Positions 48,398-63,830 of a DNA stretch of 64,000 bases are shown one piece after another (positions within the stretch are counted from its first letter, which is position 1; the number at the start of each line of letters is the position of its first letter). This DNA is from a virus. The DNA lies in IMG/VR virus record IMGVR_UViG_3300048930_000242, positions 64,001-128,000 of that record; one strand, written 5' to 3'. Made by a program: the position numbers and the translations under genes. A model generated the notes under the pieces. The model was not told the origin of the DNA, did not search any database, and saw only the letters and a program-made list of their open reading frames with translations.

Positions 48398-50272
48398 TTA
48401 GGACAACCAAACTTTCCGAGCGTCGGCCGAAGGCCCAAAGGCGATCATCAAGGACTTCTCGGCATCTTCATCTTTCTCGATCTTGGTCCAGCGCGGATTG
48501 CGGATCATCTCGGCGTAATCGGTCTCATTCATCGAACCAAGACCTTTCAGGTAGGTCGCCTTGGCCTTGGCCGGAATCGCCTTCAGAGCCTCCTCATCTT
48601 GGCCGTAGATGAAGCCAACCTTGGTTCCGTCGGTCCATCGGTAAGAAGGCGGCTCCACAGCCCAGAGGTGACCACCGGCAACCAGGTTAGGCCAGAGGCG
48701 CATGAAGAGGTTCACCAGAAGAGCCTTGATCGAGGCACCGTCATGATCGGCGTCGGCCATGATTGCGATTCGTCCGTACTCCAGGTCCTTTGGATCGACT
48801 TCCTCTCCAGGGCGGATCCCGAGCACGGCGGCGATCTCCTTAACCTCCTTGTTCTCGAAGATCTCGTTCAGAGTCATCCCGTGAGCGTTGATGATCTTTC
48901 CGCGGAGCGGAAAGCCACCATGCCGCTGAGGATCACGGACGTTCGAGAGCTGGCCGATTGCCGAGTCGCCTTCTGTCAAGAAGAGGATTCGCTGAGCCGG
49001 ATCAGGATGGTTGGCCGGAAGATGCTTGGCCACTCGGAGTTTCTTCATGTCCTTGCCAAGGCGCTTCACCTCGGCTCGCTCCTTCGCTTCCTTCTTCAGG
49101 ATGAAGGCCTCGACGATCTGGTCGCAGATATGAGACGAGCCGATCATCTTCTTGGCAACAGCCTCTCCGTCGAAGTCCTTGATCAGATGAGTCCAAGAAC
49201 CCGGCGGAGAGCTCAGGTACTCCTTGGTCTGTGACCGGAACTGAGGATCGACCACACCATCGAGCATCACAACGAAACAAGTCTTCGCTCGGATGTCGTT
49301 CGGCTTGATGTCGACCTTGTGTTTCTTGGACAGCTTGGCGGCGACCACATCGATGATCTTGTTGCGGACGTACTCCAGATGAGTGCCGCCTTCGTAGGTG
49401 TCAATTCCGTTCACGAAGCTCAGGTTGATGTTGTCATCCGATGAGAGGATCGCCAGGCGAAGGTTCTCGTACTCGAAGACCAGTGGGTCTGGACCGATTC
49501 CACAAAGAGGACTCGAAGAGATCGCTCCGGCGTACCGCTTGAAGGTTCGGCTCTGGACAACCAGGCCGTCCAACTTGAACGTGATGGCTGGGAAGCATGC
49601 CGCCAGGTCGAAGATTCGACGCCGAATGATCCGGACCGCGGTCTCCACGCTGTCAAGGTCAAAGATCGAACGATCCGGCATATATGAGATCTTGGTGTAT
49701 GGGTCGCCTTTCTTCGGAGACAAGGCGCGCTTCCTCTGGATTCCACGACAAGACTTGAGGCTGTAGAAAAGCTCGCCGTCCTCGATCTCTGCCTGGAAGT
49801 CCTCGGACAAGATGTTGACCAATGTAACGCCAAGGCCGTGAGTTCCGATAGAGACCGCACGGTCGGCATCGAAGTTGCTGCCGGCTCGGAGGTGCTGAAG
49901 AGCCAGGTCGGCCATCAGATGCTCTGAGTCCTTGGCCTTCCGCAATGGAATGCCGCGGCCATTGTCCCGAACGGTGAACCGGTAGTTGCCGAAGTCCTTC
50001 TCGGTGTTTACCCAGATGGTAAAGGTTCCGCCTTTGGCCGACTTATGGCCAAGTCGATAGGACTCATCGATGGCATTCGAGACAACCTCGTCGAAGAGCT
50101 TCACCAGCGCCGGCGAGTACGAAACCTCTTCCCACTTCAGCTCCGGAAGGTTCTTGCTCTCGTCCAAGACCCAACAGGTCTTCACCTGCGGCGCAACTGC
50201 GCCGACATACATTGAACTACGTAACCTGACATGTTCAATATCAGTTAATGCTACAATGTTATTGTCGTTCAT
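48398..50272 (-). CDS. gp39: DNA topoisomerase II large subunit (fused gp39+60 type)
   Basis: EHV.LR..MY.G, E...NA.DE, DNGRGIP, G.HG.G, TEGDSA, PLRGK, DAD.DG, KGLG. Confidence 0.96.
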   Translation of the reverse strand: MNDNNIVALTDIEHVRLRSSMYVGAVAPQVKTCWVLDESKNLPELKWEEVSYSPALVKLFDEVVSNAIDESYRLGHKSAKGGTFTIWVNTEKDFGNYRFTVRDNGRGIPLRKAKDSEHLMADLALQHLRAGSNFDADRAVSIGTHGLGVTLVNILSEDFQAEIEDGELFYSLKSCRGIQRKRALSPKKGDPYTKISYMPDRSIFDLDSVETAVRIIRRRIFDLAACFPAITFKLDGLVVQSRTFKRYAGAISSSPLCGIGPDPLVFEYENLRLAILSSDDNINLSFVNGIDTYEGGTHLEYVRNKIIDVVAAKLSKKHKVDIKPNDIRAKTCFVVMLDGVVDPQFRSQTKEYLSSPPGSWTHLIKDFDGEAVAKKMIGSSHICDQIVEAFILKKEAKERAEVKRLGKDMKKLRVAKHLPANHPDPAQRILFLTEGDSAIGQLSNVRDPQRHGGFPLRGKIINAHGMTLNEIFENKEVKEIAAVLGIRPGEEVDPKDLEYGRIAIMADADHDGASIKALLVNLFMRLWPNLVAGGHLWAVEPPSYRWTDGTKVGFIYGQDEEALKAIPAKAKATYLKGLGSMNETDYAEMIRNPRWTKIEKDEDAEKSLMIAFGPSADARKVWLS

Positions 50273-51014
50273 TCATTTTCCTGATTGTTGTTCTGACGCA
50301 TCTTTTCCTAATTTCACTATAGCCTTTTTGATTCATATAGGTTTCTAATTCATCATTTTGCAGCTTTGAGATTTTCTCATAATGAACTTTACTGGCTTTA
50401 TTTTTGAATATATGCGGTCTTTCTTTTGAATCGCCTGTGAAAGATTTCGGAAGATTGATTCTACCGGCTGTCCATCCTGGCTGAATGTTGTTTGGTTTCA
50501 CTCTAGAATTTTTGATTCCATTGTTCACCCATACTAGCCCAGTTGTTGGACATCTAATTCTACCTAATTCCCATCCATTTGGAATTTCAATTCTATCGGT
50601 TGGCCAAGTGATTTCAGTAATTTGATTGTTTATCCATTTCCAACCGCATACCGAAGAATCGCCATTTATTTTCCTAAATCCAGATCCAGAAGTTCCATTT
50701 AAGAATTTCTTATTCTTTCCGGCCATAACTTTTCTTAGAAATCTATGTTCCCAATTGAAGCATTTCATCGGTTGGGTGTAGAATCTTTCTCTAATTTGGT
50801 ATGAGAAAGATTCTACACCATCTTGGTGGATCAAGGCCTTAACGACATTTGAAGATGTGAAATATGTCACAAACAAATCTAATTCTGGTTCAACTGTTGA
50901 CAATCTTGCTCCATAATATAGCAGGCCACTCTTGTGTCTTAAAAGATAGCAATATCCAATCATTGAAGCCTCCAATGTACATGATGCTATACTATGTATA
51001 TTGGAGAATGCCAA
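50259..51014 (-). mobile_element. Free-standing GIY-YIG-like homing endonuclease with W(I/V)NN repeats
   Basis: YCY...YYG.R, YFTSS, E..FL..V, LN; AT-rich compared with neighbours. Confidence 0.75.
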
Positions 51015-51230: not shown

Positions 51231-51770
51231 TCATTCCCAGACTTCGGACTTCGCGGTCACCGAGGTCTTGATGGTGAACACCGAGAACTTGGTGCCTGGG
51301 TACTCCTTGGCCAGACGAAGAGCTTCGACCTTGCCGGAATGAAGGCTCGTGTGGACCTTCGGAGAACTCGAGAAGACCGGAGCGCCGTTCACGATCTTGG
51401 CGATCACGCAGAACTCAATCGGTTGGGCGGAGCACGGCTTGACTTCTACAGTCGCCGGAGCCGAGTTTCCGAACTTCCAGGCGTTCGGATTGCGAACCGC
51501 GAAGCTTTCTCGGTTTCGCTTCAGGATGCTCTCATGGTAGGTGAGGCGGCAGCCACTGTGGGTTGGTTCGAATGAGAAATAACGTCCACTGACGGTCTTG
51601 GTCCCACGGAGCTGGGCCAAATAGGCCACACCGCCGCCGGCGAAACTCACCAAGACCTTTGGTCCAAGAGACGAAATCTTGGAGAAGAGCAGGCCAGTCT
51701 CGGAAATGAAATAAGAGCCGCGGCGCACGGAACTCAAAACCAAAGCAAGATCAATCACGTTCATCTTCAC
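51231..51770 (-). CDS. Hypothetical protein (C-terminal P.VH....A..EA.RLA..PG)
   Basis: GAGGAG RBS; motif. Confidence 0.7.
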   Translation of the reverse strand: MKMNVIDLALVLSSVRRGSYFISETGLLFSKISSLGPKVLVSFAGGGVAYLAQLRGTKTVSGRYFSFEPTHSGCRLTYHESILKRNRESFAVRNPNAWKFGNSAPATVEVKPCSAQPIEFCVIAKIVNGAPVFSSSPKVHTSLHSGKVEALRLAKEYPGTKFSVFTIKTSVTAKSEVWE

Positions 51771-51784
51771 AGCTCCTCATAGTT

Positions 51785-52145
51785 AGACATCGTAAGAATT
51801 CTTGTCGGATTTTCTTCCCGCTTTGCGCAGGCTAGTGGATGGCTACGAGACTGGTCGATCCGACAACCTCCAGCCAAGAAGGGTTCCTTTTGGTAAGAAC
51901 CTCTATCTTAAGACCCTCTCTGTTCCGGTGGTAGCTAACCAACACAGTGGTAGAGAAAACCAACAGAGCGTTAACGATTGCTGCAAAACGAGTGGACACA
52001 TACCACTACACGCCGGCTAGTTTGAATTGTTAGCCGGGCCAATGTCTCCAAGATGCCACTCTCGGAGATGTTCCTCAATTTGCGCCGTTCGCGGACTTGC
52101 AAATCCCAACGGCTTTCATTGGCTCTTAACCGTCTAGCTATGTCT
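51785..52145 (-). ncRNA. Unassigned ~360-nt structured RNA
   Basis: No credible ORF; paired termini and eight or more hairpins. Confidence 0.65.
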
Positions 52146-52172
52146 TGCAAAACACAACTAGAATGAACTTTC

Positions 52173-52259
52173 TGGCGGAAAGCAGAGGTCCCGATCCCCA
52201 GCCCTTTCGGACCCATTCGCTTTCGAGGCGATGCCGACTCCCTGGTCGGTTTACTTTCC
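52173..52259 (-). tRNA. tRNA-Ser(CGA), 8/4 fold
   Basis: GGAAAGTA/TGCTTTCC-G-CCA, long V arm. Confidence 0.9.
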
Positions 52260-52263
52260 ATGT

Positions 52264-52338: not shown

Positions 52339-52346
52339 TCAATTTT

Positions 52347-52414
52347 CGACTGGTCCCAGGTTCGACCTGGATCTCCTCTTAGAGGGAGGCGACTTTGCCT
52401 TAGTCCAACCAGTC
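52347..52414 (-). tRNA. Atypical tRNA-like element (anticodon TCT or CTA, no CCA)
   Basis: GACTGGT/ACCAGTC acceptor, GACT/AGTC D stem, GTCGAAC T loop. Confidence 0.6.
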
Positions 52415-52529
52415 TTGCGCACTCCGCTCCTAGCTAGGTCGCGATCTTAGCGTACGTTGGAGTGTCTACGTACGAGCATCTGGCTTTGGTGATGCCGCAA
52501 CGGACCAGCCAGAGAATCCGTCTTGGATC

Positions 52530-52829
52530 TTATGCAGCCGCCTTCAACTTGGCGATTCCGAGCAACTGCCCAGCGTACTTCACCATTGCCTTCCTAGCGA
52601 CCGCGAGCTGCTTCGGAGTCAAGAAGCCACGAGCCTTAAGCTGCTTCGAGAAGCTCGAAAGGATCGGAGCATCGACACCGTTGAAGCCAACACCGTTGTT
52701 CTTGTTGGTCGACTCGGACGCTTGTTCGTCCTGAGTCTGGTAGTCGAAGATTGCCAGAAGACCGCGGTACAGCCACCGGTCGGAGGCGATCAACTTCTCA
52801 ACAATGAACTCTTTCGTCAAGGTCGTCAT
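52530..52829 (-). CDS. Hypothetical protein (QT.DE....T...NGVGF...DA family)
   Basis: Motif and codon bias. Confidence 0.75.
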   Translation of the reverse strand: MTTLTKEFIVEKLIASDRWLYRGLLAIFDYQTQDEQASESTNKNNGVGFNGVDAPILSSFSKQLKARGFLTPKQLAVARKAMVKYAGQLLGIAKLKAAA

Positions 52830-53075: not shown

Positions 53076-53120
53076 ATTCTAACACAACGGAGAGGCCTTG
53101 TCCAGCACTGAATTGTAAAC
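53076..53120 (-). promoter_or_regulatory. Early promoter copy (consensus)
   Basis: GTTTACAATTCAGTGC-TGGACA-N17-TAGAAT. Confidence 0.85.
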
Positions 53121-54332: not shown

Positions 54333-54421
54333 TGGCGGAAGCAGGACGTCTCGATCGCCATACCCTTTCAGGTACCCAACGCTTTCCAGGCGTGGCCGAC
54401 TCCCCGGTCGGTTCAGCTTCC
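54333..54421 (-). tRNA. tRNA-Ser(GGA), 8/4 fold
   Basis: GGAAGCTG/CTGCTTCC-G-CCA, GGCG-ATCGAGA-CGTC. Confidence 0.88.
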
Positions 54422-55080: not shown

Positions 55081-55123
55081 ATTCTAACCTAACTCCGGAG
55101 CTTTGTCCAGCTCCGGAGTGTAA
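55081..55123 (-). promoter_or_regulatory. Early promoter with overlapping stem-loop
   Basis: TGGACA-N17-TAGAAT; ACTCCGGAGC/GCTCCGGAGT. Confidence 0.75.
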
Positions 55124-55130
55124 CTCTTCG

Positions 55131-55574: not shown

Positions 55575-55619
55575 ATAGTACAACATCCTAAGCGTCTTGT
55601 CCAGCACTGAATTGTAAAC
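55575..55619 (-). promoter_or_regulatory. Early promoter copy
   Basis: GTTTACAATTCAGTGC-TGGACA-N17-TACTAT. Confidence 0.8.
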
Positions 55620-56004: not shown

Positions 56005-56380
56005 TTGCACCGTATCGGCGGTGCCACCCGGATAGACTTGGTCAGCCAACGTCTATCAGATCAGCCTCAAGCAGCCATAGCTACCGGAGCAAAGTACTCG
56101 TCATTTGCGGTTACTTTAGGTTTGGACTCTTTAGGACGGACTTGCCGACTTAAGCAAGCTACCCGATCCACGCGAGCTACCATCTCGGATCGCCAACAGG
56201 TTAGTATGACATCAGTCGAAGCCAGGGCAGGCCCATCAAAAGCTCTTTAGGTGGCTCCGGGTCTTGATACGGAGCACTTACATCCCCTTTCGTACCTAAA
56301 GGGCTTATGGTGGACCTGGCGGGAATCGAACCCGCGTGTTGCTGCCTTTTCGCTGTCAGTTTACGATCATTCAAGCCCTA
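56005..56380 (-). ncRNA. ssrA: Two-piece (circularly permuted) tmRNA
   Basis: Acceptor piece ends CAGGTCC-A-CCA at 56308; coding piece starts GGGCCTG at 56234 (G3:U70); tag ANDEYFAPVAMAA at 56108-56067; outer ends approximate. Confidence 0.92.
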
Positions 56381-56725: not shown

Positions 56726-56770
56726 ATTCTACCAACTTCCGACCCTCATGTCCAGCACTGAATTGTAAAC
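56726..56770 (-). promoter_or_regulatory. Early promoter copy
   Basis: GTTTACAATTCAGTGC-TGGACA-N17-TAGAAT. Confidence 0.85.
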
Positions 56771-58610: not shown

Positions 58611-58700
58611 TGGCGGATGGCACAGGTATCGATCCCGATGGCTCTGTGGCCACGTATGGGTTAGCAACCCACCCTGACAACCCCGGTCAGTTTACCATCC
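58611..58700 (-). tRNA. tRNA-Ser(GCT), 8/4 fold
   Basis: GGATGGTA/TGCCATCC-G-CCA. Confidence 0.9.
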
Positions 58701-58951: not shown

Positions 58952-58996
58952 ATTCTACCACAACGGAGATGAGATGTACAGCACTGAATTGTAAAC
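58952..58996 (-). promoter_or_regulatory. Early promoter copy
   Basis: GTTTACAATTCAGTGC-TGTACA-N17-TAGAAT. Confidence 0.85.
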
Positions 58997-59097: not shown

Positions 59098-59185
59098 TGG
59101 CGGAAAGCCGAGGTCTCGATCCCCAGTCCTCTCGGACCGATTCGCTTTCAAGGCGGTCCCGGCGCGCCTGTCCGGTTGACTTTCC
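59098..59185 (-). tRNA. tRNA-Ser(TGA), 8/4 fold
   Basis: GGAAAGTC/GGCTTTCC-G-CCA. Confidence 0.9.
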
Positions 59186-60914: not shown

Positions 60915-60959
60915 ATTCTAACACCTTTCGATGCGCTTGTCCAGCACTGAATTGTAAAC
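60915..60959 (-). promoter_or_regulatory. Early promoter copy
   Basis: GTTTACAATTCAGTGC-TGGACA-N17-TAGAAT. Confidence 0.85.
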
Positions 60960-62882: not shown

Positions 62883-62926
62883 ATTCTACCACCAAACCAT
62901 CTGCTTGTACAGCTTTGAAGTGTAAC
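62883..62926 (-). promoter_or_regulatory. Early promoter copy driving the tRNA array
   Basis: TGTACA-N17-TAGAAT. Confidence 0.75.
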
Positions 62927-62928
62927 AA

Positions 62929-63830
62929 GGTAGCCTGAGAATACGGCTTCCGGTGGTTGCCTTTCGGAGCATTATCACCATGTTGCGACACGGCGTTCTC
63001 TCCTTATCCACCTCCAGCAAGGAGGTATCAACCGTAGCGGCCTTTTTAGACTGGTGGCGTTTCCAGTGTCGTCATGTTCTATTCCAGGCCTTGTCTACCG
63101 CCTACCTTGCGACGAGCAGTACGGGCTGCTACACCCTACGTGCGACTCTTCCTGAACAACCTTTGACTTTGCGATTCTTAGGTTGACTTGATTCACCCGA
63201 AGGTGTCAAGTATTACGCTACTTTCAAACATGACCGGCAACGACTTTGCGTTTTAGTTGATGTGGGATTTGAACCGCACGCCAATTCCTTTAGATGGAAT
63301 TGCTCTACCAATGAGCTAATCGTAACCTCCTGAAGACGAGCGTTGCCGTGACTTCATGGACTTTTGGTCCACAAAATACCACCCGCCTAGTATCCTTTCG
63401 ACCGCTAAGTCTAGTCAGATCAGTTGTACCTTCTCGGCTCTTGCGAAGCCGAAACCTTACAACCTGGTGAACCGCTCTTGGCCGCTAAACCTCGAACTTT
63501 GATCACCTTCATGTTCAGCTTTGCTACTCGGTCTGTTTCGCTATGATATGCGAGTGCGAATCGCCAGGAGTCTTTCTACCAGTTGGCCTTGGACTCTTTT
63601 CTCATCAAACCTTCGCGGCTATCTCCGTCACCGAAGAGGCGCTTGTGGCGCCAGCGTTGCATGATTGTTTAGATGGACCTTTCGGCGGTGGTCGGGGAGG
63701 CCTTCCACCTTTCTGCACCTTGCGGTACAACATCCTTTCATCTTTTCACTTTCGATCAAGATGTGCTAAACCAGACGGATTTCTCCGTTTCGTCCTTTTT
63801 GAAGGGAGGACTCTTCAGTAGTTCCCTTTG
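62929..63830 (-). ncRNA. Large (~900 nt) structured RNA, GOLLD-like
   Basis: ORF-free, dense GNRA/UUCG hairpins, inside a phage tRNA array, embedded tRNA-like element; family inferred from size and context only. Confidence 0.65.

Follow-up and report, generated by a model that had tools for sequence, protein, structure and literature searches.

To our knowledge, few large structured RNAs combine many conserved helices with tertiary contacts. The characterized examples are ribozymes, riboswitch-like sensors and, most recently, RNA-only cages. RNAC and RNAD of phage T4 are stable non-tRNA species from the tRNA region of T4, and their roles are unknown (PMC3014915). The genes for GOLLD and ROOL are found in phages, close to tRNA islands, and the architecture of both RNAs prominently features kissing loops (bioRxiv 10.1101/2024.12.08.627333).

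Here, we describe a locus at the end of a phage tRNA island that is likely to encode a structured non-coding RNA of several domains, specific to one phage lineage. It is the last element of an island of tRNAs, tmRNA and GOLLD, and its RNA would act in trans. It resembles GOLLD (RF02032) and ROOL (RF03087) in being a large, many-helix non-coding phage RNA beside a tRNA island and in having kissing loops, which in the candidate are predicted. Unlike them, it is smaller (385-560 nt) and is represented by only four sequences of one narrow clade, and neither of the two models matches it in sequence or structure at E<=10. With RNAC and RNAD, which are much smaller (about 120-140 nt), it shares an origin in the tRNA region of a T4-like phage, a likeness of location only. 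Bacterial RNase P RNA is of comparable size and is also linked to tRNA transcripts, but the candidate has no match to its covariance model (CM) and no conserved P4 strands, and its conserved nucleotides are those of hairpin loops.

As far as sequence comparison goes, it represents a previously unclassified family among RNAs of the GOLLD/ROOL kind. The candidate family would be a third, unrelated large RNA in the small set that phages place beside their tRNA islands, and since a single genome combines it with GOLLD and a two-piece tmRNA, it offers a natural system for asking of what use such RNAs are to tRNA-rich phages.

Genomic setting

The stretch of DNA analyzed here (64,000 nt, referred to as the window) corresponds to bases 64001-128000 of an IMG/VR virus record that is 153,340 bp long and has direct terminal repeats. 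On the minus strand of the window, ARAGORN identifies 27 tRNAs, in an island that also harbors a permuted tmRNA and a GOLLD RNA (Table 1). Because its topoisomerase II is split, we regard the phage as T4-like; the two genes are ~35% identical to those of T4-type phages. The candidate RNA is located between the last tRNAs and an ORF of 177/179 aa (51231-51770). The clade carries the permuted tmRNA in the tRNA island, also on the related contigs L050 (2268-2515) and L051 (1-247), and the GOLLD RNA of the window phage contains an embedded tRNA-like match at 63259-63321.

The tRNA-Ser(CGA)-like gene adjacent to the candidate was missed by both ARAGORN and the Rfam tRNA model. Three paralogues on the minus strand (54333-54421, ~58611-58700 and 59098-59185) were missed by the same tools. 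The genes of this group have a long variable arm, the T loop AUCGRGA and a GCCA end; the anticodon loops are CGA, GGA and UGA among the three that were read, and similar sequences are found in Caulobacter phiCbK-like phages, DLP_6, RcXuper and DSS3_MAL1.

The nearest promoter-like site upstream of the transcription unit belongs to a 45-nt repeat, composed of GTTTACAATTCAGTGC followed by TGGACA, 17 nt and TAGAAT, of which the minus strand holds seven copies (53076-53120, 55081-55125, 55575-55619, 56726-56770, 58952-58996, 60915-60959 and 62883-62927). The motif TGGACA-17-TAnnAT also stands ahead of genes in the related contigs L050, L214 and L216. We infer that the promoter at 53104-53076 serves both the tRNAs and the RNA in one transcript, and the 5' end of the RNA would be made by 3' processing of the tRNA-Ser.

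Table 1. Features of the locus and of the surrounding tRNA island, in window coordinates
Feature	Position	Strand	Remarks
Structured non-coding RNA (candidate)	52168 to ~51785	minus	~385 nt; patchy homology to three relatives and CM hits
Helix P1	52167-52163 (TTCAT) with 52119-52115 (ATGAA)	minus	encloses hairpin Pa
Hairpin Pa	52162-52133	minus	12 pairs; loop UUGCAA at 52150-52145
Hairpin H1	52113-52084	minus	GCCGTT/AACGGC and inner stem; loop UUGCAA at 52102-52097
Hairpin H2	52068-52045	minus	TCTCCGAGA/TCTTGGAGA; loop GUGGCA
Hairpin H3	52037-52013	minus	CCGGCTA/TAGCCGG; 11-nt loop ACAAUUCAAAC
H4	51968-51918	minus	CTCTGTT/AACAGAG; encloses block TCTGTTGG..TTCTC and hairpin P8
Hairpin P8	51941-51929	minus	loop UAGCU
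Hairpin P10	51901-51882	minus	GGTTCTT/AGGAACC; loop ACCAAA
Probable pseudoknot S1 + S2	51875-51802	minus	5' strand of S2 inside the S1 loop
S1	51875-51870 (GGCTGG) with 51854-51849 (CCAGTC)	minus
S2	51866-51858 (TTGTCGGAT) with 51810-51802 (ATCCGACAA)	minus	9 bp
Conserved 3' tail	51801-51785	minus	GAATTCTTACGATGTCT; AATTCT common to L050 and L214, CTTACGATGT common to L216
tRNA-Ser(CGA)-like gene	52173-52260	minus	directly 5' of the RNA; from repeat families and reading by eye
Promoter-like site TGGACA-17-TAGAAT	53104-53076	minus	nearest upstream for the transcription unit; one of seven repeat copies
Shine-Dalgarno GAGGAG and 177/179-aa ORF	51777-51772; unit 51231-51777	minus	downstream of the RNA in the window phage only
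Intrinsic-terminator-like hairpin	51210-51187	minus	after the 179-aa ORF
Permuted (two-piece) tmRNA	56067-56368	minus	in the tRNA island
GOLLD RNA	62932-63389	minus	200 bits; at the opposite end of the island from the candidate RNA

Boundaries and folding of the window copy

All nine complementary pairs listed in an earlier sequence-only reading of this DNA are present on the minus strand where that reading placed them. Its 5' boundary at 52145 and its closing helix AGACAT/ATGTCT are both wrong, because AGACAT is the 3' strand of the 12-bp hairpin Pa, which a start at 52145 would cut in half. We place the start of the RNA near 52168, just beyond the tRNA-Ser(CGA)-like gene and separated from it by a few bases.

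The minimum free energy of the 361-nt stretch is -120 kcal/mol (z = -2.13 relative to shuffles). A second set of shuffles, in which dinucleotides were not exactly preserved, yielded the approximate values z = -2.44 for the minus and -1.85 for the plus strand. When compared to 638 windows of the same size from its own genome, the stretch folds 1.24 sd better than expected after correction for GC content, and ~12% of the GC-corrected 361-nt windows in that genome fold equally well or better. On the window sequence alone, the listed helices are weak evidence, not clearly above chance. The copy in L050 folds with z = -4.43, a value matched by none of 100 shuffles. Single-sequence folding statistics would have dismissed the RNA, which was revealed by homologues that could be reached only via neighboring proteins.

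The window copy is the shortest (~385 nt, compared to 480-560 nt in the relatives) and does not harbor the second 5' hairpin, Pb, nor the hairpins Hx and P9. Because these are missing, part of this copy may be decaying, while the compensated helices that it retains argue that selection is still acting. Each genome holds one copy of the RNA.

Homologues in related phages

Relatives were reached through two proteins, i.e., the product of an upstream 99-aa ORF (ORF99, phrog_21015) and topoisomerase. A relative of ORF99 is found on the 84.6-kb contig L050 (= L219, CAZMXB010000002.1), deposited within an "uncultured Rhodoferax sp." MAG, an assignment that is either a hint to the host or a binning artefact. 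The gene order in L050 is that of the window, with the ORF99 homologue, tRNA-Met, the tRNA-Ser-like gene and, later, a homologue of the 179-aa ORF (ORF179) and topoisomerase (88% identical). This contig also carries a tRNA island, the permuted tmRNA and a T4-type topoisomerase. The topoisomerase search identified five further members of the clade with 68-88% identity, and two of these contigs, L214 and L216, cover the region.

Each of L050, L214 and L216 displays an ORF-free stretch directly 3' of the tRNA-Ser(CGA)-like gene (L050:7662-8218, L214:118-600 and L216:3846-4330), homologous to the window locus, with similarity only in patches (alignments, nhmmer). In all four clade phages with DNA covering the site, the RNA is found on the tRNA-sense strand directly 3' of tRNA-Ser(CGA). 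The whole comparison consists of these four sequences, of which L050 and L214 are close to each other. The contigs L048, L049, L051, L215, L217 and L218 were left out: they end ahead of the RNA or have other content there. Two relatives of ORF99, P0020 and P0023, were dropped as unrelated lambda-like phages.

Direct searches returned little. A blastn search of the region and of its L050 copy against 50,697 GenBank phages gave tRNA-Ser matches or nothing, and at E<=1e-3 blastn missed the homology. When the 179-aa ORF was used as a handle, no relatives were found in IMG/VR, the GenBank phages or a set of 5.8 billion proteins; two other contigs that carry this ORF are identical to the window in the region. 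Syntenic homologues of the same ORF, of 193 and 205 aa, are present in L214 and L050 even though the 5.8-billion protein search was empty, and only its C-terminus matches phrog_17352. Topoisomerase relatives in IMG/VR were all <=35% identical and were found without synteny, nearby tRNAs or a match to the RNA, while a topoisomerase scan of a genome collection returned the L050 contig again and nothing else. The RNA was not found in three T4-like records of greater distance, nor by a CM search of 150 additional genomes from the family to which the MAG with L050 belongs, and pattern scans for the loop motifs (two of IMG/VR viral contigs and one of a metagenome collection) gave only chance matches without hairpins.

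The H1-H2-H3 core

The patches that are similar across the four phages correspond to hairpin loops and to short linkers, between which the stems differ. The window and L214 have the same outer H1 stem, GCCGTT/AACGGC; in L050 it is GCCGGC/GCCGGC and in L216 CCGG/CCGG. The inner stem closes the loop UGCCAG in the relatives and UUGCAA in the window. In H2, listed as CTCCGAGA/TCTTGGAG in the sequence-only reading, the loop GUKGCR (GUGGCA or GUUGCG) is conserved on stems that are different in all four sequences (TCTCCGAGA/TCTTGGAGA, CCAGTGAAG/CTTCATTGG, CGGTaAAGG/CCTTACCG and CCAGGA/TCCTGG). The 11-nt loop of H3 (ACAAUUCAAAC or similar) is carried by CCGGCTA/TAGCCGG, CCGAAGG/CCTTTGG, CCGAAG/CTTCGG and GCGGA/TCCGT.

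In a model-guided alignment of this core (A5), which was fitted to the structure so that the counts lean towards it, 90.4% of the cells are paired compared to 70.8% in shuffles, and 19 of 24 pairs are changed on both sides compared to 7.9 in shuffles, a result reached by none of 500 shuffles. When the 3' partners were slid by 1-3 columns, 2-3 pairs with changes on both sides were found. Because the alignment was fitted to the structure, a separate model was made without the window copy. This CM, constructed from L050 and L214 only, has a single match in the 64 kb, at 52117-52007 (68.2 bits, E 1.2e-14), in an alignment where H1, H2 and H3 are all compensated and hairpin Hx is deleted; it also matches L216 with 35 bits.

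At the level of the compared sequences, we find that compensatory changes preserve P1, H1, H2, H3, P8 and S2, and that a number of hairpin loops remain constant; S1 and P10 are probably preserved in the same way. Among the pairs listed earlier, GCCGTT/AACGGC (H1), CCGGCTA/TAGCCGG (H3), that of H2 and TTGTCGGAT/ATCCGACAA (S2) are each kept with both strands changed, and GGTTC/GAACC (P10) is kept in the relatives with one double change. The window copy displays what we propose as the features of the family, i.e., H1 (loop UGCCAG/UUGCAA), H2, H3, an H1 loop complementary to that of a 5' hairpin and the position directly 3' of tRNA-Ser(CGA).

The 5' domain and a predicted loop-loop contact

The counterparts of P1 are GTTCGG/CCGAAT in L050, GCTGGG/CCTAGC in L214 and GTTCGG/CCGAAA in L216, with two double changes between the window and L216. 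In the three relatives this helix encloses two hairpins, Pa, with the loop CUGGCA, and Pb; in the window it encloses Pa as a single hairpin.

The Pa loop CUGGCA of the relatives is the exact complement of UGCCAG, the loop of their H1. Both loops have the sequence UUGCAA in the window and are likewise fully complementary over 6 bp, i.e., six of six pairs are kept and three of six are changed on both sides between the window and the relatives. We estimate the chance that a given 6-nt loop is perfectly matched by one of the few remaining loops in the RNA to be below about 1%, and such a match occurs here with two different sequences. The complementary Pa and H1 loops may thus form a kissing contact, either within one molecule or between copies. 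The two window loops are palindromic and identical, a pattern that could also have arisen by local duplication.

The 3' domain

The 3' domain was compared in the window, L050 and L214, with L216 being unalignable beyond H3. Because MAFFT alignments of this domain (A6, A7 and A9) and of the three relatives (A10) were structurally inconsistent, they were discarded and the helices were compared via anchored coordinates.

Helix H4 (CTCTGTT/AACAGAG) is present in the window, as had been noted, and is only partly kept in the relatives. Both the block TCTGTTGG..TTCTC that it encloses and the loop of P8 show conservation in L050 and L214, and the P8 stems in the set of window, L050 and L214 are TGGT/ACCA, CCGAT/ATCGG and CCCGAT/ATTGGG. 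The P10 hairpin has the form GGATTT/AGATCC with the loop GCCAUAA in L050 and L214, one double change from the window. Two of the other elements listed earlier are found in the window without being retained elsewhere: the hairpin CCTGC-GCAAA-GCGGG is not conserved (it is absent from L214), and TAAGA/TCTTA has no consistent counterpart in the relatives.

S2 is found in the same place in the window, L050 (CCAGAGGAT/ATCCTCTGA) and L214 (TAGTGGTTT/AAATCACTA), just ahead of the conserved AATTCT. As individual S2 helices are not rare (p ~0.07-0.16 from shuffling), the case for S2 is that homologous positions in the three phages hold three different versions of it. The counterparts of S1 are (A)TCAGG/CCTGA(A) in L050 and (A)TCAGG/CCTGA(G) in L214, where the outermost pair is non-standard in both. 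Together, S1 and S2 have the topology of a probable pseudoknot. A contact between the H3 and P9 loops and a P7/H4 pseudoknot were weighed by eye; these were inconsistent across the sequences and are not claimed.

Strand, coding capacity and known families

The helices contain many G-U pairs, which become A-C mismatches when read on the opposite strand, and we therefore take the minus strand as the sense strand. The earlier statement that the stretch holds no credible ORF is upheld by the lack of a convincing coding score, of 3-periodicity and of an ORF common to the four homologues. Mismatches between L050 and L214 are distributed as 44/45/45 over the codon positions, and the indels are 2, 1, 1, 11, 2, 1, 2, 1, 17 and 1 nt long. 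Coding scores within the stretch are negative or marginal (-33 for a 96-aa ORF that overlaps the tRNA-Ser, +7.3 in the dicodon score for a 55-aa ORF at 51832-51999 without a Shine-Dalgarno site), and no protein-family matches were found in it.

Searches with the Rfam models of RNase P (bacterial A and B, archaeal and nuclear) gave no match at E<=10 in the window segment 51400-53400 or in L050 6200-9200 (cmscan, permissive filters). The GOLLD model matches the window at its own locus only and not at the candidate, and the ROOL model has no match at E<=10 at the candidate or its L050 copy. Other Rfam 15 families gave no match at E<=1 on the candidate, the nearest being a 15-bit chance match to BSnc115 (E 9.8), and the L050 copy has no Rfam match at E<=10. 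No tRNA was found inside 51785-52168 by ARAGORN or by the tRNA covariance model at E<=10.

Of the checks named in the sequence-only reading, Infernal against Rfam matched no known family, and covariation among homologues was found as changes on both sides of 19 of 24 core pairs. Its proposal of a new large phage non-coding RNA is supported, with four homologues in the same position, core covariation, an independent CM match, a non-coding sequence and no Rfam family. Its remark that the RNase P motif is absent also holds, both for the covariance models and for conserved strands of the P4 type.

Possible role and alternative explanations

By analogy with GOLLD, ROOL and T4 RNAC and RNAD, the RNA would work in trans, as a folded particle and not as the leader of the next gene. 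A more far-reaching version, in which the RNA represents a new self-assembling or catalytic class of large phage RNAs, is speculative and on balance doubtful. In this version the complementary loops (palindromic UUGCAA in this phage) and a palindromic UAGCUA loop would link copies to each other in a defined multimer, like the GOLLD and ROOL cages, and the particle would act on phage tRNA or on the take-over of translation. Targets in the phage genome complementary to the conserved loops were found at chance level only.

The best surviving alternative, although improbable, is that the stretch is a structured 5' leader, i.e., a cis-regulatory or stabilizing element of the mRNA of the downstream ORF, with no independent RNA. 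Such a role would fit the window, where the conserved 3' tail ends 8 nt ahead of the GAGGAG of the 179-aa ORF and no terminator was found between the RNA and this ORF, and also L050, where the RNA abuts ATGAGGTG and the start of an ORF. However, that ORF, of 83 aa, is unrelated. In L214 a strong promoter (TGGACA-17-TATAAT, 11/12 matches) separates the RNA from the ORF179 homologue, and in L216 the RNA ends in an 11-bp intrinsic terminator, which is followed by a promoter and the topoisomerase gene. The constant downstream gene of a cis-regulatory leader or riboswitch is thus not found: each of the four phages has a different element downstream, and the constant neighbor is the upstream tRNA-Ser. 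Because the downstream DNA differs in every relative, we consider that the RNA is not the leader of the next gene; in the window and L050 it is also part of an mRNA leader, because it runs straight into a Shine-Dalgarno site.

That the stretch is a non-functional spacer, whose helices are those of any sequence of equal length with 50% GC, was the leading reading while only the window sequence was considered. It is in line with the weak single-sequence statistics (z -2.1 to -2.4, 12th percentile in its own genome) and with the observations that the region evolves faster than the flanking genes and that blastn at E<=1e-3 missed the homology. This explanation is now very unlikely, being already largely refuted by the core pair counts and the independent CM match, where a model from other phages detects the window copy at E 1e-14. 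Compensatory changes in at least six helices and in the loop-loop contact, the conserved loops and the position retained in four phages also argue against it.

We give equally little credence to a divergent ribozyme, e.g., an RNase P-like RNA that processes the precursors of the unusual tRNAs of this phage. The size, the many helices, the long-range tertiary contact, the position in a tRNA operon and the atypical tRNA-Ser genes of the phage would suit such an enzyme, but neither the window nor L050 matches a model of RNase P or of any other ribozyme at E<=10, strands of the P4 type are absent, and the conserved bases are found in hairpin loops rather than in junction cores. The ribozyme that the sequence-only reading had offered as an option, in the absence of a model match or common motifs, therefore finds no support in these comparisons. 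Small proteins are refuted for practical purposes, with a probability close to nil: although the dicodon score of the 55-aa ORF, which has a hydrophobic N-terminus, is slightly positive, this ORF has no Shine-Dalgarno site or family match and is uncalled in the JGI gene calling, and in the relatives indels of 1 and 2 nt disrupt its reading frame, with no 3-periodicity and no common ORF. The structured RNA acting in trans remains the reading we favor.

Other elements of the island

Between ORF99 and tRNA-Met, an ORF-free stretch on the minus strand (52339-52531) is 68-77% conserved in L048, L049, L050 and L051. It contains a tRNA-like element, recognized by no tool, in which the 7 bp of the acceptor stem (GACTGGT/ACCAGTC) pair perfectly and the anticodon loop is ambiguous (UCU/CUA). 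A 251-aa ORF on the minus strand (50259-51014, ~35% GC), located between ORF179 and the topoisomerase gene, displays weak matches to GIY-YIG (SegE) and HNH endonucleases and probably encodes a free-standing homing endonuclease. In L050, an ORF of the NUMOD3 type is found instead, at a different site of the island.
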